NCBI GenBank assembly: GCA_944385895.1
Contig: CALWYZ010000012.1
Coordinates: 16,347 to 80,346 of the forward strand
Direction of reading: 5' to 3'
Source: an uncultured Clostridia bacterium
Lineage (GTDB): Bacteria; Bacillota; Clostridia; Oscillospirales; QAKW01
Length of the DNA stretch: 64,000 nt
The notes beneath the pieces are model-generated. The model saw only the letters and a list, made by a program, of their open reading frames with translations. It was not told where the DNA came from and made no database searches. The position numbers were made by a program, and so were the translations under genes. The first letter of the stretch is position 1. Every line of letters begins with the position of its first letter. Below, piece after piece: positions 10,890 through 57,010 of the stretch.

Positions 10890-10984
10890 GACTTGTTCCT
10901 CCGATCTATATATTGACTTTATTATATTCAGTAGTTTATAATAAAACAAGAGTCTTTTTTTCTTCTTTATGGGGTGATTTTGAT

Positions 10985-11830
10985 ATGACTTACAGATTTG
11001 AAGAGCTTGCCGCAAATAAATTTCACATATCCATAGCAGCAAGTCAGGAATGTGCAATGCACGGGCATGATTTTTTGGAATTCTCTTATGTAAAAAGCGG
11101 AAAAATAGAACATAATATTGACGGTAACACTTCCATTGTAAATGCGGGAGAGTACTTTATCGTCGACTACGGCACGATGCATGAGTATAAATCGATATCG
11201 GACAAACCGCTTGTTATAATAAACATTCTATTCTATCCTGAATTTATTGACAGGGTACTCACAGGCTACCGCAGTTTCAAAGATGTGGTCAACTCCTATC
11301 TGATACGCTTCAGTTATAAAACACTTAAGTTTTCACCCACCGGCAAGACATTTACAGACAAGGACGGCAAAATACTGAAAATAGTTTCTGAGCTTACGGA
11401 AGAGTACAACGAAAAGAAGTACGGATATATTGAGTATATACGATGTCTGGTTGTCGAAATGCTTATTTTAACAATGCGTAAAATCGGCAAAAACAATAAA
11501 CAAAGCGGTAAAAGCGATGTGGTAATTGAAATAACAGAATATATAAAAAACCATTACATGAATAAGATACGTCTATCTGACATTGCAAAAAGATACAACT
11601 ACTCTCTATCACACATATCACGTAAATTTTCACAAGAAATGGGTATGAGTTTTGCGGAATATCTACAGCGTACCCGCATTGAACAAAGTTGTCACATGCT
11701 GGAAAACAGTGATAAAAAAATTAATGAGATCGCTTCACTATGCGGTTATGATAATATCAAATTTTTTAACAAAGTATTTAAGAGCACTCTTAAAATTACC
11801 CCTCGCGAGTTTAAAAACCTATACAAGTAA
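10985..11830 (+). CDS. AraC-family transcriptional regulator (cupin sensor + HTH)
   Basis: I moved the start to ATG 10985. The C-terminal AraC HTH reads 'IRLSDIAKRYNYSLSHISRKF...INEIASLCGYDNIKFFNKVFKSTLKITPREFK'. The N-terminal cupin-like region reads 'HGHDFLEFSYVKSG'. Confidence 0.85.
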   Translation: MTYRFEELAANKFHISIAASQECAMHGHDFLEFSYVKSGKIEHNIDGNTSIVNAGEYFIVDYGTMHEYKSISDKPLVIINILFYPEFIDRVLTGYRSFKDVVNSYLIRFSYKTLKFSPTGKTFTDKDGKILKIVSELTEEYNEKKYGYIEYIRCLVVEMLILTMRKIGKNNKQSGKSDVVIEITEYIKNHYMNKIRLSDIAKRYNYSLSHISRKFSQEMGMSFAEYLQRTRIEQSCHMLENSDKKINEIASLCGYDNIKFFNKVFKSTLKITPREFKNLYK

Positions 11831-18606: not shown

Positions 18607-18641
18607 TAAAAAAAGCAAAGGTGTAACCTTTGCTTTTTTAT
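18607..18641 (-). terminator. Terminator closing the ilv-leu operon (bidirectional shape)
   Basis: AAAAGCAAAGG-tgtaa-CCTTTGCTTTT with A/T runs on both sides, 5 nt after the ilvE stop. Confidence 0.85.
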
Positions 18642-18645
18642 TTAA

Positions 18646-19710
18646 TTAAACCGGCATAATCCAGCCGTAATCATCCTTGATTTTTCCATTTTGTATTCCT
18701 ACAATGGTATCATAAAGCAAATGAGATATTTCTCCTATTTTGCCATTATTTATATCAATCTCTTTATCATCGACAATAAGCTGACCTATGGGAGAAATAA
18801 CAGCCGCAGTACCAGTTCCAAACGCCTCTTCGAGCGTCCCATTCTCAGCTGCCTTTACAACCTCATCAAGAGCCAATCTTCTCTCGGTAACTTTATAGCC
18901 CTTATCTCTAAGCACCTCAATACAGGACATTCTGGTAATACCGCTTAATATTGAGCCTTCAAGCGACGGGGTTATAATCTCGCCGTTTATTTTGAAAAAC
19001 ACGTTCATTGTACCGACTTCTTCAATGTACTTACGCTCAACACCATCAAGCCACAGCACCTGAGTATATCCCTTTTTCTCTGCCTCATCCTGGGCTTTGA
19101 GTGAAGCAGAATAGTTGCCTGCAGTCTTGGTAAATCCCATACCGCCTTTTACAGCACGAACATATTTTCTTTCAACGTAAATTTTTACGGGATTGATACC
19201 TTCTTTATAATATGACCCTACAGGTGACATGATTACTATAAACATTAGATGCTTTGCAGGATGTACTCCAAGAGCCGGATCCACCGCGATAATGAACGGA
19301 CGTATATACAGAGCTGTATTCTCACCTTCAGGTATCCAATCTTTATCAATTTCCACAAGCCGTCTTATGGCCTCAACACAAAACTTTTCATCGATGAGCG
19401 GAATACAAAGCCGCTCATTTGAAACATTCAATCTTTCCATGTTTTTGTCAGGACGAAAAAGTACAGCACCGCCGTTTTCCCTACGGTATGCTTTCATTCC
19501 TTCAAAAACCTCCTGTCCGTAGTGCAGACACATTGCTGAAGGTTCAAGAGGCAAAGGTCCGTAAGGTACGATACGCGGATCGATCCAGCCTTTTCCGTCA
19601 TAATAATCCATTAAAAACATATGATCTGTAAAATATTTGCCAAATCCCAGAGAAGACGGATCAGGTTTTTGCTTTTTATTCTGTGTAAGTGTCACTTTGA
19701 TTTCCTGCAT
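18646..19710 (-). CDS. ilvE: Branched-chain amino acid aminotransferase
   Basis: 354 aa class IV aminotransferase; 'HYGQEVFEGMKAYR' and 'FGTGTAAVISPI'. Confidence 0.9.
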   Translation of the reverse strand: MQEIKVTLTQNKKQKPDPSSLGFGKYFTDHMFLMDYYDGKGWIDPRIVPYGPLPLEPSAMCLHYGQEVFEGMKAYRRENGGAVLFRPDKNMERLNVSNERLCIPLIDEKFCVEAIRRLVEIDKDWIPEGENTALYIRPFIIAVDPALGVHPAKHLMFIVIMSPVGSYYKEGINPVKIYVERKYVRAVKGGMGFTKTAGNYSASLKAQDEAEKKGYTQVLWLDGVERKYIEEVGTMNVFFKINGEIITPSLEGSILSGITRMSCIEVLRDKGYKVTERRLALDEVVKAAENGTLEEAFGTGTAAVISPIGQLIVDDKEIDINNGKIGEISHLLYDTIVGIQNGKIKDDYGWIMPV

Positions 19711-19726
19711 TTTATTTCACCTTCAT

Positions 19727-20803
19727 TTATATTTTTTCAAGGATTTTCTCAGTCATCTGTACAGTTGTAAGCGGAGTGGCTTTTGATGTACCTACTATAT
19801 CAGACGTACGGTAACCGTCATTTAAAACTGTATCGACAGCATTTTCTATATCATCTGCTTCTTTTTCAAGATTGAATGAAAAACGAAGCATCATAGCTGC
19901 TGATAATACGGTAGCTATCGGATTGGCAATTCCCTTTCCGGCTATATCCGGTGCGGAGCCGTGAATTGGTTCATAAAGTCCGCGTTTTCCGTCACCGAGA
20001 GATGCAGAAGCAAGCATTCCTATAGATCCTGTTAATTGCGAAGACTCGTCGGACAAAATATCTCCGAACATATTTGATGTTACCACGACATCAAACTGCT
20101 GCGGATTTTTTATCAGCTGCATTGCAGCATTATCAACAAGCATATCCGTACAGGAAACATCAGGATATTCTTTTGCCACTCTATGCACGACTTCTCTCCA
20201 CAGTCTAGAACTTTCAAGAACGTTTGCCTTATCAATAGAAATTACATTTTTATTTCTAAGTCTGGCTGAGTTGAACGCAACGCGTGCAATACGTTCAACT
20301 TCCATCTCACTGTAACATTCGGTGTCAAATGCTTCAGGTCCGTTTTTACCGTCACGTCTTCCCCTTTCGCCAAAATAAATACCGCCTGTAAGCTCTCTTA
20401 TCATCAAAAGATCAAAGCCTTTAGCAGCGACCTGCTCACGAAGAGGACACGCCTCCTTAAGTGCAGGATACAGCTTTGCTGGCCTTAAATTTGTATAAAG
20501 ACCGAGAGCCGAACGTATTCCCAAAAGCGCATGTTCAGGACGAAGATGTCCCGGTAAAGTATCCCACTTAGGACCGCCGACAGCTCCCAAAATAACACTG
20601 TCACTTGCAAGACAGCCTTTTACAGTCTCTTCAGGCAGCGGATTTCCTGTAGCGTCATACGCACATCCGCCCATAAGATACTCTGTAAAGTTAAAAGTAT
20701 GAGAATACTTTTTGCCGATTTTATTTAATACTGCGACGGCGCTGTCAACTATTTCAGGACCGATTCCGTCGCCCTTCAGAAGAGCTATATTATAATCCAT
20801 CAC
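19727..20803 (-). CDS. leuB: 3-isopropylmalate dehydrogenase
   Basis: '[16 protein letters not shown]' and '[10 protein letters not shown]'. Confidence 0.95.
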
Positions 20804-20814
20804 ACTTTCTCCTT

Positions 20815-21309
20815 TTATTTAATTAAACCTTTTTTTACCGATTCAACAAGTCCGCCGCTGAGTATTATATTCTGGATAAACTGCGGAAAAGGCTGTGTCT
20901 TATATTCTTTACCACTGGTTTTATTATAAATAACACCATTGTCAAGGTCTACCTCCAGTTTATCTCCCTCACTGATTGCATCAACTGCTTGGGGACACTC
21001 CAAGATAGGAAGACCTATATTTATTGAATTACGGTAAAATATACGAGCAAAGCTTTTGGCAATAACAAGAGAAATACCGCTTTCCTTTATTGCGATAGGA
21101 GCATGCTCACGAGATGAGCCGCAGCCAAAATTAAATCCTGCGACCATAATATCTCCCTTTTGTACACGTGAGATAAAAGTCTTATCAAGATCCTCCATGC
21201 AGTGGGAGGCAAGTTCTTTTTTGTCAATGGTATTCAGATATCTTGCTGGAATGATTACATCTGTATCAACATTATCTCCGTATTTTATGACCTTTCCTTC
21301 AAACTTCAT
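20815..21309 (-). CDS. leuD: 3-isopropylmalate dehydratase small subunit
   Basis: 164 aa; '[15 protein letters not shown]' and '[10 protein letters not shown]'. Confidence 0.95.
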
Positions 21310-21310
21310 A

Positions 21311-22573
21311 TTACTCTACCTCCTTGGGATGAGAAATTTTACCTGTTATTGCACTTGCCGCAGCCACTACGGGACTTGCAAGGTAGACCTCTGATTCGGG
21401 ATGTCCCATTCTGCCTACAAAGTTACGGTTTGTTGTAGCAACCGCACGCTCACCCTTTGCAAGTATTCCCATATGCCCGCCAAGACAAGGTCCACAAGTC
21501 GGAGTGGAAACAGCCGCACCACACTCAATAAATGATTTTAAAAGACCCATCTCCATTGCCTCAAGATATATTTTCTGAGTTGCGGGAATTACAATGCAGC
21601 GAACATTTTTAGCGACCTTTTTGCCTCGCATGATCTTCTCTGCCGCAATAAGATCCTCAAGCCTACCGTTAGTACAGGACCCGATTACTACCTGATCTAT
21701 TTTAATTTCTTCAATCTCCTCAACAAGATGTGTGTTTTCCGGCAAATGAGGAAATGCAACTGTCGGTTTTATTTCAGACAGATCTATGACATAAGTCTCA
21801 TCATAAACAGCATCAGCGTCAGCTTTGAATATTTTAGGCTCACGTTTGCTATGAGCTTTGACATATTCAATGGTTTTATCATCCACTTCAAATATACCGT
21901 TTTTTCCTCCGGCCTCTATTGCCATATTTGCCATACAGAGTCTATCTGAGACTGACAGTGTATGTACACCCTCACCTACAAATTCCATTGATTTATAAAG
22001 TGCACCGTCAACACCTATCATACCGATTATATGTAAAATTACATCCTTTCCGGTTGCATATCCGGTAAGCTGGCCTTTCAGTTCAAATTTAATAGCAGAA
22101 GGCACCTTAAACCACGCCTTGCCTGTCGCCATACCGCATGCCATATCAGTTGACCCTACGCCTGTTGAAAACGCGCCGAGTGCTCCGTAAGTACATGTAT
22201 GAGAGTCAGCGCCTATCACAACATCTCCGCAAACCACAAGTCCCTTTTCGGGAAGTATAGCATGTTCTACTCCCATTTGTCCTACATCAAAAAAGTTTTC
22301 AATATCCATTTTACCGCAAAAATCACGGCACATTTTACACTGCTCAGCCGCCTTTATGTCTTTGTTAGGCGCAAAGTGGTCCATTACCATAGTGACCTTT
22401 TTGCCGTCAAAAACGCTGTCTTTACCAAGCTTTGCATATTCCGCAATGGCAACCGGTGAAGTTACGTCATTACCCAAAACAAGGTCAAGATCTGCAATTA
22501 TAAGCTGTCCTGCCTCAACCTTGTCAAGTCCTGCATGAGCGGCAAGAATCTTCTGTGTCATTGTCATACCCAT
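21311..22573 (-). CDS. leuC: 3-isopropylmalate dehydratase large subunit
   Basis: Aconitase-family protein; '[11 protein letters not shown]' and the Fe-S Cys motifs '[13 protein letters not shown]' and 'GSCTNGR'. I placed the start at Met-14 of the ORF so that it does not overlap cimA. Confidence 0.93.
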
Positions 22574-22577
22574 AATA

Positions 22578-24146
22578 TCAATATTCTCCTTTTCGTGATA
22601 ATATATATTCAAATGAGTCAGTCAAAGCTGTGAAACTGGCCTCTATTATATCATTTGAAACGCCGATCGTAGTCCAGCTTTCATCGCCGTTTGTAGACTC
22701 TATAAGTACACGTATTTTTGCAGCAGTAGTACTGCTCATATCTATAACACGTACTTTAAAATCAGTCAAGTGCATCGAGCTTATCTGAGGATAAAAAACA
22801 CAAAGAGCACGCCGTAAAGCCACATCCAACGCATTTACCGGGCCGTTTCCCACAGCTCCTGTTATTTCCGTTTTGCCGTTCACATTAAGAGATACGATTG
22901 CACTTGCTTGCATTGAACCATCAGATGCGGGAAAATCATCGTTTGTTTTGAAAAATTCAATATTAAAGCTCGGTTTCCACAGCCCCAGCTGTTTTTTTAT
23001 AAGAAGTTCAAAACTCGCTTCCGCAGCCTCATATGTATAACCGTAAAACTCACGTTCTTTAAGTACCGCAAGCAGCTTAGCAGCCTCAGGGGAATTTTTG
23101 TCAATACCCGGAATAAACTTCTGTATCTTTGGAAGTATAGTACCCCTGCCCGACACCTCGCTTGTCAGAAATTTACGGTGATTACCTACAAGCTCAGGAT
23201 CAATATGTTCAAAAGAACGCGGCAGCTTCATTACACCGTCAATATGCATACCGCCTTTATGAGCAAATGCGCTTTTTCCGACATATGGCTTGTTATTTCG
23301 CAGCCGTACATTAGATACCTCTGAAATAAATGTTGCTGTTTGCCGTAATTCTTTTATATTGCCCGCAACACTATATCCGCATTTAAGCGCCAAATTGGCA
23401 ATTATTGTGGAAAGGTCCGCATTACCGCAGCGTTCACCGAAACCTACAAATGTTCCCTGCACAGAGCTTGCGCCGTTTTGTACTGCTGTAACAGAATTTG
23501 CAACTGCACAGCCGCAATCATCATGACAATGTATTGCTATTTTTGTTTTATGAAAAGTCTTACTTACTACATTAGTTATTTCACCAAGTGCATTCGGCAT
23601 CATGCCTCCGTTTGTATCACACAAACACACACAATCTGCACCTGCTTTTATGGCTGTATCAATAACTTTCATTGCATATTCACTGTTATTTTTATAGCCA
23701 TCAAAAAAATGTTCTGCATCAAAAACAACTTCTTTACCCAGCTCTTTAAGATAATTTACTGTATCATACACTATTTTAAGATTATCTTCAAGTGATATTT
23801 TCAATATTTCGGTAACATGCAAATCCCATGACTTTCCGAAAATTGCACAGACAGGCGTATTTGCCGAAAGCAAGCTTTTTATATTTGCATCCTGTGAAGT
23901 CTCAACATTATTTCGTCGAGTACTGCCGAAAGCACATAATTTAGAATATTTAAGCTTTATTTTTTTCATCTCTTCAAAAAAGAGAAGATCTTTGGGATTA
24001 GAGCCCGGATTTCCTGCTTCTATATAATCTATTCCGAATTCGTCTAAAGCCTTTACTATTTTAATCTTATCGGCAACGGAAAATGAAATTCCTTCGCCTT
24101 GTGAACCGTCACGCAATGTTGAATCGTATATTTCAATGTGTTTCAT
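22578..24146 (-). CDS. cimA: (R)-citramalate synthase (LeuA-related, TIGR00977-type)
   Basis: 522 aa. '[25 protein letters not shown]' and '[13 protein letters not shown]', with a C-terminal LeuA-dimer-like regulatory domain. It is a second, divergent paralogue next to a bona fide leuA. Confidence 0.75.
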
Positions 24147-24155
24147 GTCAAATCC

Positions 24156-25661
24156 TTACTGCATAAGTTGATTTACCGCGGAGAGGTATGCCTCAATACT
24201 AGCTTCTATTATATCTGTTGACAATCCGCGTCCGTTAAAGCTGTGAGCATCGCTTTTAAGTTTAAGTATGACTTCGCCAAGCGTATCCTTGCCCTCTGAA
24301 ACAGCATTTATTATAAATTTATCAAGCGTGTGTTCCGGAGGTAAAACAATTTTATCTATTGCGGCGTAAAGCGAATCTATCGATCCGTCGCCCAGCGCTG
24401 TCTGCTCAATAAACTCATTATCCTTTTTAAGACAGATCGTACCTGATACTCCGCTTTTACCCATAGTCTGAACATCAAATTTAACAAACTTATAGATTCC
24501 TTCCGTCGTAACGGTATTGTTGTTTACAAGTGCTTCTATATCGCCATCTGTAACAGACTTTTTGAGATCACAAAGATCTTTGAACTTAGAGAATGCAGTT
24601 GCTATCTCTTCATCAGTAAGTTTATATCCGAGCTCTTCAAGACGTGTGGTAAATGCATGCTTTCCTGAATGCTTTCCCAATACCATCTTATTAGTCTGCA
24701 CGCCTACAGATTCAGGAGTCATAATTTCATATGTTTCCTTTTTAGCAAGAACACCGTGCTGATGTATTCCCGACTCGTGCGCAAAAGCGTTTGCTCCGAC
24801 GATAGGTTTATTCAGCGGCGCTGTTTGTCCTATTATGTTATATACAAGCTTGCTTGTACGGTAAATCTGCTTAGTATCAATACGAGTATCGGCATCATAA
24901 AGCGCTTTGCGTGTACGCAATGCCATTACCGCTTCCTCCAAAGAAGTATTTCCCGCTCTTTCTCCAAGACCATTTATAGTACATTCAATTTGAAGAGCTC
25001 CACCCAAAACACCTGCAAGAGAGTTTGCTACCGCCATTCCCAAATCATTATGACAGTGTACGGAAAACTCTACTTTATCGCTGTCAGGCACATTTTTTAT
25101 AAGATATTCTATTCGTTGACGCATTTCATCAGGTGTCGTATAACCGACAGTATCGGGAATATTTAGAACTTTCGCTCCATTTTTAATTGCCGCATCGCAG
25201 ACGCGAACAAGAAAGTCAAGATCACTTCTTGTAGCATCTTCAGCAGAAAATTCTATATTGGAACATTTTGAAGCGGCATATTTAACCATTTGTGCCGTCT
25301 TTTCCAATACCTCATCAGGCGTCATTTTCAGCTTATACTGCATATGTAAAGGCGATGTAGCCAAAAAAACATGTATTCTCGGGTCTGCCGCATCTTTTAT
25401 TGCGTCATATGCCGCGTCAATATCTCCTTTGACGCATCGTGCAAGAGATGCAACAGAGCAGTCTTTTACAGTCTGAGCTATCGTCTGTACAGATTTAAAA
25501 TCACCCGGCGAGGATACGGCAAAACCCGCCTCGATTATATCCACCTTTAAACGTTCGAGATGCTTTGCAACTTCTATTTTTTCTTTTAAATTCATACTGC
25601 ATCCAGGTGACTGCTCACCATCACGCAGAGTGGTATCAAATATCTTAACATGCTTACTCAT
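24156..25661 (-). CDS. leuA: 2-isopropylmalate synthase
   Basis: 'IFDTTLRDGEQSPGCSM' and 'HCHNDLGMAVANS'; 501 aa. Confidence 0.9.
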   Translation of the reverse strand: MSKHVKIFDTTLRDGEQSPGCSMNLKEKIEVAKHLERLKVDIIEAGFAVSSPGDFKSVQTIAQTVKDCSVASLARCVKGDIDAAYDAIKDAADPRIHVFLATSPLHMQYKLKMTPDEVLEKTAQMVKYAASKCSNIEFSAEDATRSDLDFLVRVCDAAIKNGAKVLNIPDTVGYTTPDEMRQRIEYLIKNVPDSDKVEFSVHCHNDLGMAVANSLAGVLGGALQIECTINGLGERAGNTSLEEAVMALRTRKALYDADTRIDTKQIYRTSKLVYNIIGQTAPLNKPIVGANAFAHESGIHQHGVLAKKETYEIMTPESVGVQTNKMVLGKHSGKHAFTTRLEELGYKLTDEEIATAFSKFKDLCDLKKSVTDGDIEALVNNNTVTTEGIYKFVKFDVQTMGKSGVSGTICLKKDNEFIEQTALGDGSIDSLYAAIDKIVLPPEHTLDKFIINAVSEGKDTLGEVILKLKSDAHSFNGRGLSTDIIEASIEAYLSAVNQLMQ

Positions 25662-25675
25662 AGATTTTAACCTTT

Positions 25676-27337
25676 CTATTTTATTATGGCGCCTTTATCT
25701 GCACTTGAGACCATTAAGCTATATCGTTTAAGGTAACCAGTAAGGTTTGTTTTTACAAGCGTTTTTTCTGTTTTGCGTCTGTTTTCAATTTCGGCTTCTG
25801 AAACATCAAGGCTTATACTGTAATTTGGAATATCAATCGAAATAATATCTCCGTTTTTCACATAAGCTATGGTTCCGCCGTTAACTGCTTCCGGCGAGAC
25901 ATGACCGATGGCGGCGCCGCGTGTGGCACCTGAGAAGCGTCCGTCGGTTATAAGTGCAACTTCCTTATCAAGACCCATGCCTGCAATCGCAGAGGTTGGA
26001 GACAGCATTTCTCTCATTCCGGGACCTCCTGCCGGGCCTTCATAACGAATAACAACAACGTCTCCTGGATTTATACCCCCGTCATAAATGACCTTTATTG
26101 CCTCCTCTTCACTGTTAAATACACGTGCCGGTCCGCTGTGCTTTAACATTTCCGGAGCGACAGCACTGCGCTTTACAATAGCACCGTTTGGTGCCAATGA
26201 ACCGAAAAGTACAGCTAAGCCACCCGTTTTGCTGTATGGGTTATCGGACTTCCTGATGACCTGTGGATTTTTAGAACGAGCATTTCCAATATTTTCTCCT
26301 ACAGTTTTACCTGTAACGGTCAAAAGAGTCGTATCAATAAGTCCTAAATCGCAAAGCTCCCCCATTACGGCACGTACTCCACCCGCTGCCTCAAGATCCT
26401 GCATATGATGATGTCCTGCAGGTGCAAGATGGCACAGATTCGGAGTATGCTCACTTACATCATTTATCATACGTAAATCAAAATCAACATGCGCTTCATT
26501 TGCAATTGCTGCAAGATGCAGAGCAGAATTTGTAGAACATCCCAGTGCCATATCTACAGTCAAAGCATTTTTAAAAGATGCAGCTGTAATTATGTCCAGA
26601 GGACAGATATTTTTTTCAACAAGCTCCATGACCTGTTCACCGGCTTGTTTTGCCAAACGAATTCGTGCAGCATTTACTGCAGGTATTGATCCATTACCGG
26701 GAAGAGCAATACCCAATACCTCACTTAAACAGTTCATTGAATTGGCAGTAAACATACCGGAACACGAGCCACATCCGGGGCATGCATTTTCCTCTATATA
26801 ATTAAGTCCGCTGTCGTCAAGCGTACCGTTTTTATATGCGCCTACCGCCTCAAAAACGGAGTTTAAATCCATAGCTGTGCCATCTTCAGAACAATTTGAC
26901 AGCATAGGACCGCCGGATACAAATATAGAAGGGATATTCACTCTGCATGCAGCCATTAACATTCCGGGAACTATTTTATCGCAGTTAGGAATGAACACAA
27001 GACCGTCAAATGCATGTGCTTTTGCCATACACTCTATACTATCCGCAATAATTTCACGAGTTACAAGTGAATATTTCATTCCCTCATGTCCCATTGCAAG
27101 TCCGTCACAAACACCGATCGTATTGAATTCCATAGGCGTTCCGCCTGCGGCAAGAACTCCGTCCTTTACCGCACGGGCGATATTTTTAAGATGAATATGT
27201 CCCGGGATAACCTCATTAAAAGAATTGACTATCCCTATCAGAGGTTTTTTTATCTGACTGTCAGTATAGCCCATTGCTTTAAGCAGTGAGCGCTGCGGAG
27301 CACGTTCCGCTCCCGACTTCATTTTATCACTGTTCAT
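25676..27337 (-). CDS. ilvD: Dihydroxy-acid dehydratase
   Basis: '[13 protein letters not shown]' and '[17 protein letters not shown]'. The start is likely ATG 27337 (GGAG 8 nt upstream); the ORF-track start at 27355 is an alternative. Confidence 0.95.
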
Positions 27338-27358
27338 ATCTGTTTCTCCGTTCATGAC

Positions 27359-27387
27359 ACCGTGTCGGAAAACTTTTCCGACACGGT
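27359..27387 (-). other. Perfect 14-bp intercistronic stem-loop between ilvC and ilvD
   Basis: ACCGTGTCGGAAAA-c-TTTTCCGACACGGT. No U-run follows on the minus strand, so it is not a canonical terminator. Confidence 0.6.
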
Positions 27388-27409
27388 ATGTAATATAAAA
27401 ATTTATATT

Positions 27410-28995
<1,586 letters not shown>

Positions 28996-29011
28996 TCGTA
29001 CTCACCCTCGC

Positions 29012-30694
29012 TTAATTCATATTTATTTCATTTTTACGGACAATTATGTCATCGATAGAACCGCCCGGAGGCGTCATGGGAAGCACAAATTCATCCTTAT
29101 CAATAATACAGTCAATAACAGTAGGTTTACCACTCTCAAATGCGGATTTAAATGACTTTTCAAAATCCGCGACTGTCTCTGCTCTGTAACCGTCTGCACC
29201 AAAAGCCTTGGCTAATTTGACAAAATCAGTTTTTCTGTCAAGAACCGTATTTGAATAATGTTTATTATAAAATAGAGTCTGCCACTGTCGTACCATACCC
29301 AAAACACCATTATTCATAATCACAATTATAACAGGAGTCCCTGTTGATACAGCAGTTGCAAGTTCATTAAGGTTCATACCGAAACTTCCGTCTCCTGTGA
29401 TAAGAACAACCTTCTGACCTGTACCGAAAGATGCACCGATCGCAGCTCCCAAACCGAATCCCATTGTTCCGAGTCCGCCGCTGGATATAAATGTTCGAGG
29501 CTTTGAAAAATTGCATCTTTGAGCTGCCCACATTTGATGCTGTCCCACATCAGTTGCTATGAGAGTTTGAGGTGTGATATATTTATTAATAACGTCTATT
29601 ACTGAATATGGCCGCATATTTTCCGGTGTAACATCAATGGATGCTGTCTTTTGCTTATACTCTTCTATTTGGTTTCGCCATTGAGGATGCTGCTTACTTT
29701 GAACTAATGAAAGTATACGTGACAGAGCATCTTTAATATCGCCGACCATACCGAGTTGTACTTCGATATTTTTATCAATTTCACCCGGTTCTATGTCTAT
29801 ATGTATTATTTTTGCGCCTTTTGCAAATTTGGATTTATTACCCGTTGCCCTATCGCTGAACCGAACACCGCATGCTATAACAAGATCAGCGCCGGCAAGC
29901 GATTTTGAAGATGCAAAAAGGCCGTGCATACCCTGCATACCAAGAGCATTTTTATGATTTGTAGGAATTGCAGACAGCCCCATCATACTGCAGCCTACAG
30001 GAGCGTCTATTTTTTCCGATAGAGCTACAAGCTCATCAGATGCTTCTGCTATCACTACTCCGCCGCCGCAATAGATATACGGACGCTGAGAATCATTTAT
30101 CATTTTAACAGCCTTCTCAACATCGCTTTCCTTTACTGTGATAAGAGGTCTCTTTGCTGACGGGCCTTCAGGAATCCATTCGCATGAGGCTATCTGAACA
30201 TCTTTTGGTACATCTATAAGTACAGGTCCGGGTCTTCCTGATTTTGCGATTTCAAAAGCCTCTCGTATTGTAGGACCAAGATTTTTTATATCCTTTACGA
30301 TATAATTATGTTTGGTGATAGGAATCGTAATACCCATTATATCGACTTCCTGAAAGCTGTCACGGCCTATCAGATCAACAGGCACATTACCGGTAATAGC
30401 TACCATAGGCGTCGAATCAAGATATGCAGTTGCAATACCTGTAACAAGATTAGTGGCGCCGGGACCGGACGTGGCAATAACAACGCCAACTTTTCCGGTA
30501 GCTCTTGCATATCCGTCCGCCGCATGAGCGGCACCCTGTTCATGCGCTGTGAGAACATGAGTTATTCTGTCAGAATTTTTATAAAGCTCGTCATAAATAT
30601 TTAATACCTGCCCGCCGGGATAGCCGAATACAATATCGCATCCCTGATCGATCAAACCTTCAACAATTATTTGTGCTCCGGTAAGTTTCATCAT
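29012..30694 (-). CDS. ilvB: Acetolactate synthase large (catalytic) subunit
   Basis: ThDP enzyme: 'FGYPGGQVLNIYD', and 'GDGSFGMNLNELAT...IVIMNNGVLGMV' (the GDG...NN motif). Confidence 0.95.
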   Translation of the reverse strand: MMKLTGAQIIVEGLIDQGCDIVFGYPGGQVLNIYDELYKNSDRITHVLTAHEQGAAHAADGYARATGKVGVVIATSGPGATNLVTGIATAYLDSTPMVAITGNVPVDLIGRDSFQEVDIMGITIPITKHNYIVKDIKNLGPTIREAFEIAKSGRPGPVLIDVPKDVQIASCEWIPEGPSAKRPLITVKESDVEKAVKMINDSQRPYIYCGGGVVIAEASDELVALSEKIDAPVGCSMMGLSAIPTNHKNALGMQGMHGLFASSKSLAGADLVIACGVRFSDRATGNKSKFAKGAKIIHIDIEPGEIDKNIEVQLGMVGDIKDALSRILSLVQSKQHPQWRNQIEEYKQKTASIDVTPENMRPYSVIDVINKYITPQTLIATDVGQHQMWAAQRCNFSKPRTFISSGGLGTMGFGLGAAIGASFGTGQKVVLITGDGSFGMNLNELATAVSTGTPVIIVIMNNGVLGMVRQWQTLFYNKHYSNTVLDRKTDFVKLAKAFGADGYRAETVADFEKSFKSAFESGKPTVIDCIIDKDEFVLPMTPPGGSIDDIIVRKNEINMN

Positions 30695-30711
30695 TTTTCC
30701 CCTTCTTACTA

Positions 30712-30756
30712 GTTTTAAAAATAACGCCTGTGGTTATTTCAACCACAGGCGTTTTT
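30712..30756 (-). terminator. Attenuator terminator in the ilvB leader
   Basis: On the minus strand, a 13-bp perfect stem AACGCCTGTGGTT-gaaat-AACCACAGGCGTT is followed by ATTTTTAAAA. It ends ~18 nt before the ilvB RBS (AAGGGG), with no gene upstream for it to terminate. Confidence 0.75.
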
Positions 30757-30805
30757 ACACTAAATGTCAGAATTGATTTTTTACCTGATATATTACAGTG
30801 TTTTG

Positions 30806-30901
30806 TTACCTATTATTGAAACAACCCGAAAAAGCATTATCATTTAGTAGTATGATAATGCCAATCACTATAATAATCACGTTGCTCAATAATACGTTCA
30901 T
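30806..30901 (-). CDS. Candidate ilv-leu leader peptide (31 aa, 14 Ile/Leu/Val)
   Basis: My hand translation is MNVLLSNVIIIVIGIIILLNDNAFSGCFNNR*. GGAG lies 8 nt upstream of the ATG. The ORF sits between promoter and terminator and is too short for the supplied ORF track. Confidence 0.6.
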   Translation of the reverse strand: MNVLLSNVIIIVIGIIILLNDNAFSGCFNNR

Positions 30902-30929
30902 TTTCCGACTCCGAATTGTAATTGTTAGA

Positions 30930-30958
30930 ATAATAGCACATCACTATCAATTTTTCAA
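30930..30958 (-). promoter_or_regulatory. Sigma-A promoter of the ilv-leu operon
   Basis: On the minus strand I read TTGAAA, a 17-nt spacer (aattgatagtgatgtgc), then TATTAT. It lies ~25 nt upstream of the leader-peptide ATG. Confidence 0.7.
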
Positions 30959-31029
30959 TAGCTAATTCTTTTTTTCTACAAAAAGCATAAAACTATGATA
31001 TTATGCATGTTAATTTGTACAATTATTTA

Positions 31030-31076
31030 CAAATAATAAACAGATGTACAGCCTTTAGCATGCTAAAGGCTGTACA
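31030..31076 (-). terminator. Terminator of the GH73 hydrolase gene
   Basis: 32-nt perfect palindrome TGTACAGCCTTTAGCA/TGCTAAAGGCTGTACA, followed by a T-rich tract on the minus strand, 3 nt after the stop. Confidence 0.85.
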
Positions 31077-31079
31077 GTT

Positions 31080-33467
31080 TTACGGCATATTTTCAAATAC
31101 GGGAATAACAAATTCTATTTCATTGTCAAGAGTCCCTCCCGCTTTATGCGCCTTGTAATAGTTCTGTGCATCCTTATACGGCGCGGCTATATCGGTCATA
31201 TACTGATGCCATGTACGATTGGGAACAAACGAGAATTTCATGAAATAAATGCTGTACTGCTGGCAGCTGATATACTGGGATTTCACCCATGCGGCTCCCT
31301 CGATTATAGCCTTGCGCTTACTGTTCCAGTTATAATTTTTAGCATACACTGCGCCGTTGGACGGGTTGGTGTCTATCGCGCCTATTCCGTAAAAGTTATA
31401 ATACCCTTCATAGCCCGGGATAGTACCGGTGGCAAGAGCGCTTGTACCTCTGCCCGATTCAAGCGCAGCTCTGGCTGTTATAAAATACGGAGACAGTCCG
31501 GTTGATGCGGCACCGTCAAGGATATAATCCGCAAATGTCTGGTCGTTCCAGATACTGAGCACTCCCTGACGAGAGTATACCGATTCATCATATGTCTGCT
31601 TTTCAAACATGAATATACTCTGCTCGTTAAGGAAATTACGCGGGTCTACATAGTATTTGATTTCGTCAAGCGTCGCCTGACGGTTGCCCAGCACTGAGCT
31701 GGCTCCCAGCTGAGATGCTACATATGAATTAAAATCATAACCGGTCTTTACAAACGTAAATTTCCAGTTCGGATGCTGCTGTTTGAGCGCATTTATATAG
31801 CTTGCATATGATTCTGGCATTACAGTCTGCTCATATCCGGCGAAAATGTCATTTTTACGGACATATCCGTATGAGCCGATTTTATCACCGCTGCAAAGCT
31901 GTATATGAACAAAACCGGAATCGATATTTTCATTTAATATAAGAACTTTAGTGCTGCGGCTGAGAGTCGCGATCACGGAAGATCCTGTTGTGGCATTTTC
32001 ATATACCTTGACAGCGGAATTAATTATATATCCGTAAGACAGATCATATGTCTTATCTGAAATAACAATAACAATCTCATGCATTATTCCGTTGGACTGG
32101 ATTTTAAGAACAACAGTATTTCTGCCGGGAGCCAAATTGAGGTTTTCTCCCAGAGCCGCTGTCGAAACAAGCCCGGACTGCTGTGTTACTGTTATGCTGA
32201 TATCAGCATCTTTTGCGGAATACATAACGTCGGTAATCTTCTTTTCGCTCAATGAGGATACAACTGCAGTATAGTAGTCATTATCCTCTGAAAACTCAGG
32301 ACTGAGAGAAAATCCATATGTCTCGATATCCAGTACAGATATCTCAGTATGCTCTAAAACAAATGAATACTGAGAACCACTTGAGTCTCCGTTATACGAG
32401 TAAAGAGAAACGGCGTATGCATTTTCAAGTCCGTACATTGATATAACGTCTGTCTGACCGGGTATATATACATACTGACCAATGACATTTCTGTTTTTAT
32501 CGTAAATGACAACATTTATATCAAAATCTGCCTTTGTAAAGCGCAAAACCGATTTATTCATATTTTCTGTGACTGACGGAGGAAGAAGAAAATAATCCTC
32601 ATCGCCGTAATAGTCGAAAGTCCCGCTGTTGATAGCGTTGAGATCGGAATATACCATTTGCCACTGCCATTCGTTATTATCAAAAGGCAGTTTAACATAA
32701 AACGGCTTTAATTCATCCTGATAATATCCTGTAAGCTTAAGATAATACTTAGCGGCACCCCTGCCCTTATATTGAACTTCCAATGTCTCATTAGAATTAT
32801 TCCAGCCGTTCTTTATGGGATTCATAGCACTATCAAGCAAAGTATATTCCACTCTGCCTGAAAGACCGCCGAGCCGAATACTTACAAACTCGTTATCTGA
32901 ATTTATTTCAAAATAAATAGATTCAGGCTGGCAGGTAAATGCAGCATAATAGGTTTTACCACGTTCAATTTTGTGGGGAATATTTACTGAGCTTCCGAAA
33001 ATACCATCGTTGAGAAATATTTCAAACGCATTTTCAAATGAAACCTCCTGCCCGCTTTTAAGGATATACCCCGTGTTTGTAACAGCAGTATATTCAACAG
33101 GCTGACCGCCATAGTAAACCATAGAATGAGAACCACTGTACACCTGACTTAAATCAGGAAGCATAGATATCTCATTTTTAGTAAAATCCGTTGTAACTAT
33201 ATTTTCCGACATTTTAAAATATGTAGCTTTTTCAGCGCGGCGCTGTTCACGGTAAGTGGATAGCTGATCCTTTTTATAGAAAAAACTCATATCCGAATTT
33301 GTCACAAACGTAGGCTCGTCAAAAGCGTCAAGATCGCCCTCGATATCTATAACTACCTTCTCTTTTTTCGGAAGTGCCACTATTACCAGCACTGCTAATA
33401 TAAGACAAGGTATTAATATAAGTAATGTTTTAAAAAGTTTTATTTTTATCGCCTCTTTTTTATACAC
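31080..33467 (-). CDS. Membrane-anchored cell-wall hydrolase: SH3b + C-terminal GH73 N-acetylglucosaminidase domain
   Basis: 795 aa with an N-terminal TM helix (LFKTLLILIPCLILAVLVIVAL). The SH3b-like segment reads 'VYENATTGSSVIATLSRSTKVLIL...GYVRKNDI'. The GH73-like segment reads 'YFITARAALESGRGTSALA...YNFYGIGA'. Confidence 0.7.
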   Translation of the reverse strand: MYKKEAIKIKLFKTLLILIPCLILAVLVIVALPKKEKVVIDIEGDLDAFDEPTFVTNSDMSFFYKKDQLSTYREQRRAEKATYFKMSENIVTTDFTKNEISMLPDLSQVYSGSHSMVYYGGQPVEYTAVTNTGYILKSGQEVSFENAFEIFLNDGIFGSSVNIPHKIERGKTYYAAFTCQPESIYFEINSDNEFVSIRLGGLSGRVEYTLLDSAMNPIKNGWNNSNETLEVQYKGRGAAKYYLKLTGYYQDELKPFYVKLPFDNNEWQWQMVYSDLNAINSGTFDYYGDEDYFLLPPSVTENMNKSVLRFTKADFDINVVIYDKNRNVIGQYVYIPGQTDVISMYGLENAYAVSLYSYNGDSSGSQYSFVLEHTEISVLDIETYGFSLSPEFSEDNDYYTAVVSSLSEKKITDVMYSAKDADISITVTQQSGLVSTAALGENLNLAPGRNTVVLKIQSNGIMHEIVIVISDKTYDLSYGYIINSAVKVYENATTGSSVIATLSRSTKVLILNENIDSGFVHIQLCSGDKIGSYGYVRKNDIFAGYEQTVMPESYASYINALKQQHPNWKFTFVKTGYDFNSYVASQLGASSVLGNRQATLDEIKYYVDPRNFLNEQSIFMFEKQTYDESVYSRQGVLSIWNDQTFADYILDGAASTGLSPYFITARAALESGRGTSALATGTIPGYEGYYNFYGIGAIDTNPSNGAVYAKNYNWNSKRKAIIEGAAWVKSQYISCQQYSIYFMKFSFVPNRTWHQYMTDIAAPYKDAQNYYKAHKAGGTLDNEIEFVIPVFENMP

Positions 33468-36325: not shown

Positions 36326-39259
36326 TTATGCAGCAAACAATCCAGAAATAACAGTGTTTATAACGCTGTCTGTAAGGACATTGTCTCCACCCAGATATCC
36401 GCTGTAAATTCCATTGCTTTCAGCCCACGCCGAAGCTTTGTCTGCTTTTGTACTTGCATCAAACATAGAGTAATTTATACCAACAAGATTTGAAACTATC
36501 TCGATGAATATACCCTCTGTCATTGTACCGTTGGCAGATACGGAAGTAACTACAGAATATGAGAAGCCAAGTCCAAGATAATCATTATACCATCCATCCG
36601 GAACAGTTCTTATATACATATCTCCGTCGATACCGTCAAAATCACCCGGCTCGTAAATTGTCTGACCGCTGTCATTATTATTGTTATCATCTGGTGTACC
36701 GCCGTAATTATTATCTGTTGTACCGTCGTTATTATCATTGACATTATCGCCATTCTCATCATCGCCGGAAGGCTCATTATCATCCACGTTGTCATTGTCA
36801 TCATCGCCGGAAGGCTTATTATCATCCACTTTGTCATTGTCATCATTATCTGCTATCGATACATTAACGTCTACAACGCCGATTTCAGTTTTACTTTCAC
36901 CCAATGCTTCTACTGTTATTTCGTCATTTTGACATGTAAGAAGCAATCCGTATGTATCACCGCAAGTAGCAGATGCATATGAAGTACCGCCATCCTTGAA
37001 TGTGGCGTCGCCTGATCCTGCTGTTACAACAAGATTGGTACCAAGTCCGCCAAAATTCTTGGTAAAGTCTACACCAAGATAATTATCTAAATTATCACCG
37101 TGAGCAAATACAATATTGTAAGTACCTTTTGATGAGCTGTATATTTTATCCTGCATCCAAGTCAGCTGCTCTGAACGAATTTTATCAAATGCGGCATATC
37201 CCTTATATTTCGCATCGTTATCTGCGGATTCAGTGGCAGTATCAAGACCTACTATTGATAAATCTCCCCATGTCATATTCATGTACATTTTGTTCATTAC
37301 CAAAGCTTCAGTTACATTTCTTATATAACCTCCGATATGGGATGCAAACTCTCCCGTAGCTTCGCCTTCACCGCGCAGGAAAATAACAGGGACCATTCCT
37401 GAGCTTATCGTGTTCATATACTCAAGATATTTTCCAAAGTTACTTTCTGACTGGAATGACGATGTCATATTTCCAAGTGATACTATCAAACTGGGATTTG
37501 CACCGATAGCTGTTTTAACCTTAACCGCATCAATATTGGAAACCGCATTATTTGCCACAACTGCAATTGTATACTTCTTTAGACTAGAAGATGTGTCATT
37601 ACTGAACTTAGTGATAACACCATTGGTGTAAGGACCATAAGATGTGGGAGGATTACTTTTCAGGCCATATTCAGCATAATTAGTAACGACCCTGCTTCTT
37701 ACATTATAATTGCAGTTATCAAAAATTTCTTTTGGTATTTTTACTGAATGAGTTATACCGGTACGCAGCTTTCCGGCAACTGAATCCATATAGCTGTACT
37801 GCTGGCCGCCTTTGGTTATTTCAACATAACCGGCGCTTTCATTTGATGTCTGCCAAACTACTGAATAATAAATACCACTGTCAAATACAACGGGTTTTAC
37901 TGTAATTGATGTAGTCTCGCTGGCACCCTTAAGCTCCATGGTAGATACACCTGCCGCGGTAGGTACAGCGACGGTCTCTTCTTTTTCAATATCAGTTGTT
38001 TCTTCTTCAACAGCTTCTTCAGTCAATTCTTCTTGAGGTACTGAGACAGTGTTTTCGGGTATTTCAGCTGTAACAGGAGATGATCCCACACGTCCTGTCT
38101 CAAGAGTCTTTTCAAATGCTGTTGATCCTGTCTCGGTGAATCCCTTAAAACTATAGTTGCCGTTGGACATTGTTAAAAGCGTCGTACGCATCGTTTCGTT
38201 ATCAGTACGTCCGCCGTCGTGAACGACCGGGAAGCCTAATTTATTGTTTTCTTCACCTTCACCTACATATTTATGTGCGTGTGAATGTCCTGCAACAAGT
38301 ACATCTGTTCCGTAATTTACCATTTGCTGAGCATATTGTGGATCAAGGTACCGGTCAATTAATTTAGGAGAATGACCTATGGATATATGGTATTGACTGC
38401 CTTTTGTATATCCGCCCATATTTTGAAGCCAGAGATACTGCTCTTCAAAATAATGATCCATATCGTCTACACCATAATACTCTTCATGGCTGTCTTCCTT
38501 ATCCTCACCGACATCTATTGTTATTCCGGATACGGGGCCGTAATCCCACTGACAATAGAATTCACCTGTATTATATGAAAGATACTTAATCAGATACTGA
38601 GCGTAATAACCACGGCATTCATGGTTGCCCTTTGCATACAGAACCGGAATGGAACCTTCGGACAATGTATACCCAATATCAAGTATCAGATCAAAATCTG
38701 CTTCCGTAGGCAAGTTGTTAGGTATGTCACCGTTCAACACGATGACATCAACGCCGCCCATATAGTTTGTCAAATGTATTTTTGACGCCTCCATGGTTTT
38801 TTTGTTGTGAGGCATAAGATGGGTATCTGAGAAAAATCCGAATTTAATTTCACTCTGATTATGATAGCCTGTAAAGTTGCTTGAAACAGAGATAGATGTT
38901 CCCAGGCTAAAATTATAATCTGTTCTCGAGTTGACAGCTACCGAGTACACCTCATATAATCCGGCAGAATCGAGATGTGACTGAGGAACTCTGACAGTAT
39001 GTATATAGTCATCAGAACGAACTACTCCGTTTTCTTCATCATAAACAGTATAGGTCCTGCCTCCGTATTTATATGTAACGTATCCTATACTTTTTTCCGT
39101 TGTTTTCCAGACAATGTTATACTCGCCGCCTCCGCCGAAATAAACCGACGGTTTATATGAAAAATCAAATGTCGCAGCAACTGCATTTATTGAAAATACA
39201 GAGAAAAGCGATAACATCATCAATACAGTCAGGATTAATGATAAAACTCTTTTTTTCAT
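36326..39259 (-). CDS. Secreted protein with two purple-acid-phosphatase-like modules (Fn3-like N-domain + calcineurin-like metallophosphoesterase), an Asp/Asn-rich linker and a C-terminal anchoring-type domain
   Basis: 977 aa with a signal peptide (MKKRVLSLILTVLMMLSLFSVFSINAVAA). The first module has 'FGFFSDTH', 'LNGDIPNN', 'KGNHE' and 'VAGHSHAH'. The second module is related but degenerate ('IVFAHGD'). The acidic tract reads DNDDNDKVDDNKPSGDDDNDNVDDNEPSGDDENGDN. Confidence 0.7.
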   Translation of the reverse strand: MKKRVLSLILTVLMMLSLFSVFSINAVAATFDFSYKPSVYFGGGGEYNIVWKTTEKSIGYVTYKYGGRTYTVYDEENGVVRSDDYIHTVRVPQSHLDSAGLYEVYSVAVNSRTDYNFSLGTSISVSSNFTGYHNQSEIKFGFFSDTHLMPHNKKTMEASKIHLTNYMGGVDVIVLNGDIPNNLPTEADFDLILDIGYTLSEGSIPVLYAKGNHECRGYYAQYLIKYLSYNTGEFYCQWDYGPVSGITIDVGEDKEDSHEEYYGVDDMDHYFEEQYLWLQNMGGYTKGSQYHISIGHSPKLIDRYLDPQYAQQMVNYGTDVLVAGHSHAHKYVGEGEENNKLGFPVVHDGGRTDNETMRTTLLTMSNGNYSFKGFTETGSTAFEKTLETGRVGSSPVTAEIPENTVSVPQEELTEEAVEEETTDIEKEETVAVPTAAGVSTMELKGASETTSITVKPVVFDSGIYYSVVWQTSNESAGYVEITKGGQQYSYMDSVAGKLRTGITHSVKIPKEIFDNCNYNVRSRVVTNYAEYGLKSNPPTSYGPYTNGVITKFSNDTSSSLKKYTIAVVANNAVSNIDAVKVKTAIGANPSLIVSLGNMTSSFQSESNFGKYLEYMNTISSGMVPVIFLRGEGEATGEFASHIGGYIRNVTEALVMNKMYMNMTWGDLSIVGLDTATESADNDAKYKGYAAFDKIRSEQLTWMQDKIYSSSKGTYNIVFAHGDNLDNYLGVDFTKNFGGLGTNLVVTAGSGDATFKDGGTSYASATCGDTYGLLLTCQNDEITVEALGESKTEIGVVDVNVSIADNDDNDKVDDNKPSGDDDNDNVDDNEPSGDDENGDNVNDNNDGTTDNNYGGTPDDNNNNDSGQTIYEPGDFDGIDGDMYIRTVPDGWYNDYLGLGFSYSVVTSVSANGTMTEGIFIEIVSNLVGINYSMFDASTKADKASAWAESNGIYSGYLGGDNVLTDSVINTVISGLFAA
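36756..36839. repeat. Two tandem 42-nt units encoding DNDxVDDNxPSGDD inside the metallophosphoesterase gene
   Basis: Unit 1 (36756-36797) and unit 2 (36798-36839) differ at only a few positions by eye. Confidence 0.8.
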
Positions 39260-50488: not shown

Positions 50489-50580
50489 ACGGGAAAAACA
50501 GAAGTAAGTCCGTTTTATGGGACATCGACTATGTAATAATAATACAAGGATAGTTTTCTTGTATGGAAAGAGCATTATTT

Positions 50581-51765: not shown

Positions 51766-51769
51766 ATTT

Positions 51770-57006: not shown

Positions 57007-57010
57007 AGAA

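Follow-up and report, generated by a model that had tools for sequence, protein, structure and literature searches.

The ten-gene ilv-leu operon on the minus strand of a 64,000-nucleotide (nt) stretch of DNA from an uncultured Clostridia bacterium (contig CALWYZ010000012.1; the whole stretch is called the window below) is preceded by a short leader, which we propose to be a ribosome-mediated leader-peptide transcription attenuator. Through it, expression of ilvBNCD-leuA-cimA-leuCDB-ilvE would respond to the supply of charged Ile, Leu and Val tRNAs, a reading to which we assign a probability of about 0.85. As far as sequence can tell, the leader has all the defining features of the leader-peptide attenuator class, and no curated family fits it. 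The proposal draws on the anatomy of the leader, on its conservation in relatives, on covariation in its hairpin and terminator, and on a complementarity of the end of the leader open reading frame (ORF) to the terminator, which recurs from genome to genome. The mechanism is a classical one that is already known in Firmicutes, and knowledge of attenuation itself is unchanged by this case.

The elements of the leader are as follows, in the order of transcription:

30930 to 30958, minus strand: sigma-70-type promoter, with −35 TTGAAA (30958-30953), a 17-nt spacer and −10 TATTAT (30935-30930)
30909 to 30912, minus strand: Shine-Dalgarno sequence GGAG of the leader ORF, 7 nt 5' of the ATG
30806 to 30901, minus strand: leader ORF MNVLLSNVIIIVIGIIILLNDNAFSGCFNNR, 31 codons and a stop, with its ATG at 30901
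30877 to 30894, minus strand: region 1, covering codons 3-8, which forms the 5' strand of the leader hairpin in minimum-free-energy folds
30845 to 30880, minus strand: regulatory codon run VIIIVIGIIILL, codons 8-19, proposed ribosome stall sites, 11 of 12 codons being Ile, Leu or Val
30833 to 30862, minus strand: inner hairpin GGCAUUAUCAU / AUGAUAAUGCU, −12.1 kcal/mol, with UUUUU directly after it
30808 to 30829, minus strand: region 2, 3' strand of the leader hairpin (30829-30811) and 5' strand of the antiterminator, of nearly invariant nucleotides
30757 to 30801, minus strand: spacer hairpin within the antiterminator helix, variable in sequence in relatives and recurring as a hairpin
30732 to 30750, minus strand: region 3, 3' strand of the antiterminator (GCCUGUGGUUGAAAUAACC), which takes in the 5' arm and loop of the terminator and the beginning of its 3' arm
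30717 to 30753, minus strand: intrinsic terminator, with a 14-bp stem (30753-30723), loop AAA, then AUUUUU (30722-30717)

Most of this layout had been recognized in a preliminary description of the locus, which reported the promoter hexamers and their spacing, a GGAG ahead of the ATG, a 31-codon ORF with 14 Ile, Leu and Val codons, a spacer of about 50 nt, and a GC-rich hairpin with a U-tract before the ilvB ribosome-binding site. The promoter lies where it had been placed, and a TG at 30938-30937 gives it an extended −10 element (TGcTATTAT, 30938-30930). Its hexamers match the consensus at 10 of 12 positions, it is kept in all ten sequences of the intergenic alignment (A1), and transcription is predicted to start at about 30923. 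The GGAG is also present, with a spacing to be corrected from 8 to 7 nt; relatives have GGAG-type sites at an unchanged distance from the leader ATG. The 14 branched-chain codons among the 31 of the ORF specify 7 Ile, 4 Leu and 3 Val. When the ATG-started ORFs of 20 to 60 amino acids in all six frames of the window are ranked by Ile/Leu/Val density, the leader ORF comes first of 367, and its densest 12-residue stretch contains 11 such residues, compared with 9 in the runner-up. The spacer between the leader stop codon and the terminator measures 52 nt. The terminator stem consists of 13 Watson-Crick pairs and one G-U pair (−21.7 kcal/mol), and it is followed by the ilvB ribosome-binding site and an ATG at 30694.

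In the proposed mechanism, a ribosome would translate the 31-codon ORF on a transcript initiated at about 30923. If Ile, Leu and Val are plentiful, it would reach the stop codon (30808-30806) and cover region 2 (GGUUGUUUCAAUAAUAGG), and after its release region 1 would sequester region 2 in the leader hairpin. Region 3, left free, would pair with region 4 to form the 14-bp terminator, and RNA polymerase would stop at the U-tract (30722-30717). When charged tRNA-Ile, tRNA-Leu or tRNA-Val is scarce, the ribosome would be expected to stall in codons 8-19, where it would melt or occlude region 1 and the inner hairpin and leave region 2 exposed. The latter could then pair with the emerging terminator 5' arm and loop before the 3' arm is synthesized, such that the terminator would be blocked and the polymerase would read into ilvB. 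Translation of the ORF, ribosome stalling, the kinetic order of folding and the physiological response to amino-acid supply are the parts of this scheme that we infer.

The 236-nt leader RNA folds much better than dinucleotide shuffles of it (z = −6.95), none of the 200 shuffles being as good. The minimum-free-energy fold of the free leader is made up of an extended hairpin that lies wholly inside the ORF (−26.6 kcal/mol) and of the terminator (−21.7 kcal/mol). Codons 3-8 (region 1) and codons 25-31 (region 2) are the two strands that pair in this leader hairpin, and the inner hairpin pairs the Ile codons with Asp-Asn codons. Together with the U5 that follows it, the inner hairpin may be a transcription pause hairpin, synchronizing the ribosome with RNA polymerase. 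Covariation was assessed in an 11-sequence alignment for the leader hairpin and the terminator. In total, 85.7% of the cells are paired, versus 29-52% when the partners are slid by 1-3 columns, and 20 pairs have changed on both sides. On four of five measures, none of 500 shuffles reaches the observed values; on the remaining one, further standard pair types, 12 of 500 do. Changes on both sides affect 9 of the 17 pairs of helix 1 of the leader hairpin and 7 of the 14 pairs of the terminator helix, in which 96% of the cells are paired. The same helices of leader hairpin and terminator are predicted independently by RNAalifold. The covariation thereby supports the predicted hairpin inside the ORF as well as the terminator, and the region 1:2 pairing, which is able to sequester the antiterminator strand, is present both in the individual folds and in the RNAalifold prediction.

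Conservation had to be sought beyond the nearest GTDB species representatives, which share only about 64% IlvB identity with the window and are metagenome-assembled genomes (MAGs) labelled Oscillospiraceae, Eubacteriales or Clostridia; a metagenome scan with IlvB yielded only relatives at ≤63% identity. Closer relatives (IlvB 70-89% identical) were obtained through a protein search and their contigs. In all 12, a homologous leader is present, complete with promoter, ribosome-binding site, Ile/Leu/Val-rich ORF and terminator. Wherever these relatives keep the hairpin, they thus also keep the short ORF with its Ile/Leu/Val run, whose conservation the preliminary description had named as a check. 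Those with 79-89% IlvB identity are syntenic with the window, with a glucosaminidase-like gene, about 400 nt of intergenic DNA and ilvBNC, and in the intergenic alignment the promoter, ribosome-binding site, ORF and terminator are far better conserved than the flanking DNA. Homologous leader ORFs are found in loci L082-L098, and the homologous peptides of closer relatives include MNVLLSSVIIIVISIIGLLIDNAFSGCFNNR, MTKIFNNVIILVVNIIGLLLDNVFSGCFDNGFVNAK, MSKLLNNLLILVVNIITLLGDNAFSGCFSNRLNATA, MTRTSNFIIIIISVISLLLGNSVFQVDSNMGYNNIS and MINLVMTSIILLAVTVVLLDSNGQFGYALERK. Their length ranges from 31 to 37 codons, and their C-termini differ.

The type of constraint on the ORF was examined in seven distinct genomes, by comparing the leader with ilvB of the same genomes:

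ilvB: 9.8% of third codon positions invariant, mean identity 0.64
leader codons 2-19: 5 of 18 third codon positions invariant, mean identity 0.82
leader codons 20-31: 10 of 12 third codon positions invariant, mean identity 0.98

Residues in the ORF's first half swap among I, L and V with the amino-acid class being kept. The second half is conserved as nucleotides, which points to a constraint from RNA structure. A run in which the class is kept, followed by a nucleotide-invariant 3' half, is the pattern that an attenuator predicts, whereas a functional small hydrophobic protein predicts the opposite.

The antiterminator pairing, which had not been seen in the preliminary description, was identified by alternative folding and recurs in relatives. 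For a transcript that ends short of the 3' arm and carries the footprint of a ribosome whose A-site is on codons 1-12 (and whose P-site is one codon upstream of the A-site), folding pairs GUUUCAAUAAUAGG with CCUGUGGUUGAAAU. The extended helix, of 18 pairs and one mismatch, is formed by GGUUGUUUCAAUAAUAGG-U (30826-30808) with GCCUGUGGUUGAAAUAACC (30750-30732). For the spacer hairpin that it encloses, the pair count in the MAFFT alignment is poor (47-69% paired), yet every sequence folds one. The last nucleotide of the antiterminator 5' strand is the first base of the stop codon, and this strand would therefore be covered by a terminating ribosome and not by one stalled 30-70 nt upstream. The close group has an invariant terminator 5' arm and a 3' arm that varies between A and G, as would be expected if the 5' arm pairs with two different partners. 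The free RNA favors the terminator state over the antiterminator state by 14 kcal/mol (−62.2 versus −48.0 kcal/mol); with the first 21 codons masked, the antiterminator state is computed at −34.8 and the terminator state at −32.3 kcal/mol. These modelled energies fit a switch.

Recurrence of the pairing was examined in 27 leaders, namely 11 distinct ones from the window and the closer relatives, and 16 more distant ones from the surveys of ilvB loci. In all 27, the terminator begins 8-56 nt past the stop codon, the antiterminator partner strand lies within about 35 nt of that codon, and antiterminator pairing is seen on folding the stretch between the ORF end and the terminator loop. The pairing of the 5' arm and loop with the ORF end beats that of shuffled versions, with a mean z of −1.68; z is below 0 in 25 leaders, and p is below 0.05 in 8.

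Several results weigh against a switch of this kind. As the terminator 5' arm is invariant in the close group, all changes seen there in the antiterminator helix are one-sided and compatible, and the three relatives at about 70% identity use a shifted register of the antiterminator; strict compensatory evidence for the region 2:3 pairing is therefore weak. When 28-nt footprints are placed on the full transcript, the probability of the terminator is approximately 0.96-0.98, and the terminator is kept for most simulated stalls. If all of the RNA 5' of the stalled ribosome is masked, the antiterminator wins in only 6 of the 27 leaders. In truncated folds, moreover, the 5' untranslated region can also pair with the terminator arm, a source of noise that extends to the per-codon folds of all loci. 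Equilibrium folding of the full transcript with such footprints was hence rejected as a demonstration of the switch, as the terminator always wins, and the case for the switch rests on truncated-transcript folds and on the complementarity statistics. It follows that the model depends on the kinetic order of co-transcriptional folding, in which regions 2 and 3 precede region 4. The antiterminator of the classical trp attenuator is likewise less stable than the terminator and depends on co-transcriptional folding.

Known RNA families do not account for the leader. With Rfam 15, no match was obtained at gathering score in the whole 64-kb window, and at E ≤ 10 no T-box, riboswitch or ilv/leu leader family was found in positions 30600-31150. 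The best permissive match, to Thr_leader, scores 19.4 bits against a gathering score of 55 and covers the terminator hairpin only. Seventeen homologous or analogous leader-type loci gave nothing at E ≤ 0.1, and neither the curated Rfam leaders (Thr, Leu, His, Trp, Lactococcus Leu/Phe) nor the riboswitches, including the ppGpp/ykkC subtype, produced a near-gathering match. There was no Rfam match to ilvB-OMG here or in relatives, the presence of an ilvB-OMG model in the searched library being unconfirmed. Similarly, five representative peptides matched no relevant ilv or leu leader-peptide family of Pfam or NCBIfam at E ≤ 10. The stem I, specifier loop and T-box sequence of the T-box family (RF00230) were not found by its covariance model, and the same model detects T-boxes in relatives with scores of 94-129 bits. 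The lack of T-box hallmarks noticed by eye is thus borne out at gathering score and at E ≤ 10. A T-box, riboswitch or known leader at the locus was rejected on these searches, which were negative at gathering and permissive thresholds in the window and in the 17 loci.

Control might nonetheless be exerted without a ribosome, by an unrecognized riboswitch, with ppGpp or a branched-chain metabolite as possible ligands, by an element that senses tRNA, or by a protein that binds RNA, the ORF being a by-product. In other Firmicutes, ilvB is under the control of ppGpp riboswitches and T-boxes (PMC10272879), T-boxes are present in relatives, the leader RNA is strongly structured, and a conserved block 5' of the −35 hexamer (see below) suggests an additional control at the DNA level. 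Such control is very unlikely, however, in view of the negative Rfam searches of the window and the 17 related loci, permissive thresholds included. The structure is a simple extended hairpin in an ORF whose start, ribosome-binding site and frame are conserved, with no multi-helix junction or conserved unpaired pocket, and the maintenance of the Ile/Leu/Val class despite sequence change is hard to explain without translation. The free variation of the hydrophobic part among I, L and V bears also on another explanation, slightly less probable again, in which the product of the ORF is a functional membrane peptide, small and hydrophobic, or a peptide resembling a type I toxin; the ORF would have a terminator of its own and would lie before ilvB by coincidence. 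The product does look like a single transmembrane helix, and gene callers annotate it as a 31-amino-acid gene on some contigs. Its most conserved part is fixed at the nucleotide level, third positions included, which is the opposite of protein-level selection, and the ORF differs in length (31-37 codons) and C-terminus among relatives. In addition, all 27 catalogued ORFs are directly 5' of ilvB and are followed by a terminator able to pair with the ORF end, and no Pfam or NCBIfam family matches the peptide.

In a third explanation, the hairpin is a constitutive leaky terminator, or a structure stabilizing the mRNA, that does no more than fix the operon's basal expression and involves no conditional switching. 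This explanation is in keeping with the thermodynamic preference for the terminator in most simulated conditions, but constitutive termination would be a waste when a strong promoter drives a 12-kb biosynthetic operon. The explanation also leaves unaccounted for the conserved Ile/Leu/Val ORF, the invariant 5' arm beside a variable 3' arm, and the complementarity of ORF end and 5' arm that recurs among the leaders, and we hold it to be the least probable of the three. The ribosome-mediated attenuator remains the preferred reading.

The distribution of such leaders was surveyed in 160 ilvB loci from GTDB representatives and metagenomes of related Clostridia, T-boxes being counted within 500 nt upstream of the gene. 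Approximately 17 loci have the leader-peptide layout and approximately 17 have a T-box, as in the relatives L006, L008 and L012; in many of the others, ilvB lies inside an operon. The earlier remark that a T-box would be expected at this place is therefore half right, as the two types of elements are about equally frequent. In a rough neighbor-joining tree of IlvB, built without bootstrap, all leader-peptide loci fall in one large clade, in which a five-locus T-box subclade is nested; the remaining T-box loci are outside. Of the distant leaders, nhmmer searches with the alignment of the close relatives reach no more than two, L104 (E = 8.6e-7) and L013 (E = 0.005). Common ancestry of all leaders is plausible, being hinted at by their architecture and by the IlvB tree, with sequence profiles that barely reach the distant ones. 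The leaders might form a large, uncatalogued and probably monophyletic attenuator family of gut and rumen Clostridia, with one design, that alternates with T-boxes at the same position, a proposal for which we see the odds as about even. Its members would include Oscillospiraceae-like MAGs, Christensenella-like MAGs and Oribacterium sinus, whose cultivable strain DSM 17245 carries the analogous leader of locus L019, and the family's design would be one in which the Ile codons pair with a following GAUAAU-type segment and the ORF end mimics the 3' arm of the terminator.

Among the distant leaders, the ORF-end motif UUUGCGUU(R)UGCUGA is common (L019, L020, L022, L104, L106, L107, L127 and L131). 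It encodes ...LRC/LRY... and complements the loop and 5' arm of AAGCCUUACAGC-type terminators, and by sequence these leaders look like a second subfamily of unchanged architecture. In some relatives, including L009, L010 and L011 (near positions 940-1230), a T-box lies about 2 kb upstream of ilvB and presumably fronts another gene of the cluster. Locus L014 has such a distant T-box as well as an Ile/Leu/Val leader peptide with a terminator directly before ilvB (L014:656-906 and L014:2767-2935), and both types of sensors can therefore coexist in one locus.

The attenuators of the enterobacterial ilvGMEDA (ilvL), ilvBN (ivbL) and leu operons follow the classical four-region model. The leader described here resembles them in its Ile/Leu/Val-rich ORF of some 30 codons close to the promoter, its region 1:2 hairpin, the location of the antiterminator 5' strand at the ORF end, its intrinsic terminator before the first biosynthetic gene, and the proposed multivalent sensing of three amino acids. 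In contrast, no sequence or profile homology to them is detectable (Pfam, NCBIfam and Rfam leader models), the host belongs to the uncultured Clostridia, and the operon joins ilv, leu and cimA genes. Control of ilv or leu operons by leader peptides has been described in enterobacteria, Corynebacterium and Staphylococcus aureus, and leu-ilv leader peptides have been predicted for Lactococcus and Streptococcus (PMC5794164, PMC10272879, PMC1262725). That leader peptides replace T-boxes in Firmicutes has been described already (PMC2965389, PMC5794164). In particular, the ilvD leader of S. aureus (PMC5794164) is likewise an Ile/Leu-rich peptide with a terminator in an ilv-leu context of the Firmicutes, where Bacillus subtilis uses a T-box, and its terminator also begins about 50 nt past the stop codon. 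The S. aureus peptide, however, has 26 residues, precedes ilvD and is unrelated in sequence, and its proposed antiterminator pairs with the poly-U tail, whereas the one proposed here pairs with the terminator 5' arm and loop.

The ilvB-OMG motif and the Leptospira ilvB motif have been reinterpreted as attenuators with upstream ORFs (uORFs) rich in branched-chain amino acid codons (PMC10272879). Together with the ilvB-II uORF of Corynebacterium, they resemble the present leader in having such uORFs 5' of ilvB and terminator stems; they belong to other lineages, and two rows of the ilvB-OMG alignment look GC-rich (PMC10272879). T-boxes (RF00230), both in related Clostridia and in the ilv-leu operon of B. 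subtilis, similarly lie 5' of ilvB and couple conditional intrinsic termination to a tRNA-charging signal. Unlike the leader, T-box RNA senses uncharged tRNA directly, and its characteristic elements were not detected here by the covariance model. An incomplete literature search found no paper describing a leader of the present type 5' of ilvB in Clostridia.

For an uncultured lineage of gut Clostridia, the leader provides a concrete and testable regulatory annotation of a biosynthetic amino-acid operon of 12 kb. A widespread class of putative leader-peptide attenuators is missing from current libraries of RNA and peptide families, and in these genomes the ORF is left unannotated or is listed as a hypothetical protein of 31 amino acids. 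The set of 27 leaders could seed a covariance model. The roughly even split of related lineages between T-box and leader peptide at this position is useful for the study of regulatory turnover, and if a T-box subclade is truly nested in the leader-peptide family, these loci would offer a natural system for the replacement of one tRNA-charging sensor by another.

Beyond the leader, three features delimit the transcription units of this part of the window:

31045 to 31076, minus strand: terminator of the upstream glucosaminidase-like gene, 14 pairs and then a T-run
18646 to 30694, minus strand: operon ilvB, ilvN, ilvC, ilvD, leuA, cimA, leuC, leuD, leuB, ilvE, identified with NCBIfam equivalog models, with short intergenic gaps
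18609 to 18639, both strands: bidirectional terminator A6-GCAAAGG-loop-CCTTTGC-T6, directly 3' of ilvE, which closes the operon

The leader is a separate transcription unit because the gene upstream of it, an ORF of 795 amino acids with a Pfam Glucosaminidase domain match (31080-33467), ends at its own terminator (31076-31045). An A/T-rich intergenic stretch separates this terminator from the leader promoter. As the promoter lies between the two terminators, the one at 30753-30723 serves no upstream gene, in line with the preliminary description, and its assignment to the glucosaminidase-like gene was rejected.

Just 5' of the −35 hexamer, the block TTTTATGCTTTTTGTAGAAAAAA (30966-30992, minus strand) is nearly invariant in nine of the ten sequences of alignment A1, in which the intergenic DNA around it varies. 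It contains the inverted repeat CTTTTT-N5-AAAAAG and, judged by this pattern, could be a transcription-factor operator or an UP element that provides a second layer of control. No CodY box was found in positions 30930-31040 within 3 mismatches. Antisense to the leader, there is a plus-strand ORF of 55 amino acids (30798-30965), accompanied by a promoter-like site (30816-30843); rather than a gene, this is most likely an artefact that mirrors the A/T-rich Ile/Leu/Val codons.

The ten-gene ilv-leu operon of about 12 kb that had been reported earlier is confirmed by NCBIfam equivalog models on ten minus-strand ORFs. The unit extends over about 12.3 kb, its cimA gene codes for citramalate synthase (687 bits with NCBIfam, for a cut-off of 450), and no strong internal terminator was found on the operon strand from ilvB to ilvE. 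The operon begins with a tandem ATGATG (30689-30694), and the single ATG of relatives aligns with the second of the two; the alignment suggests that the true ilvB start may be at 30691. The TTG start of the listed leuC ORF overlaps the end of cimA by 35 nt (22578-22612), and the real leuC start is probably about 40 nt downstream of it, since the NCBIfam alignments begin at residue 14-16. At the other end of the operon, the symmetric A6-stem-T6 hairpin (18609-18639) separates ilvE from the next minus-strand ORF, and it is followed by a promoter-like site (18598-18570) ahead of a gene for a YgjV-like membrane protein.

Elsewhere in the window, two large minus-strand ORFs, of 977 amino acids (36326-39259) and 1089 amino acids (7788-11057), gave no Pfam match at E ≤ 1e-5. 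On the plus strand, a series of co-oriented genes (50563-59101) includes one for a protein of 953 amino acids with Z1 and ResIII helicase domains (53223-56084), and the series resembles a restriction or defence-type cluster.

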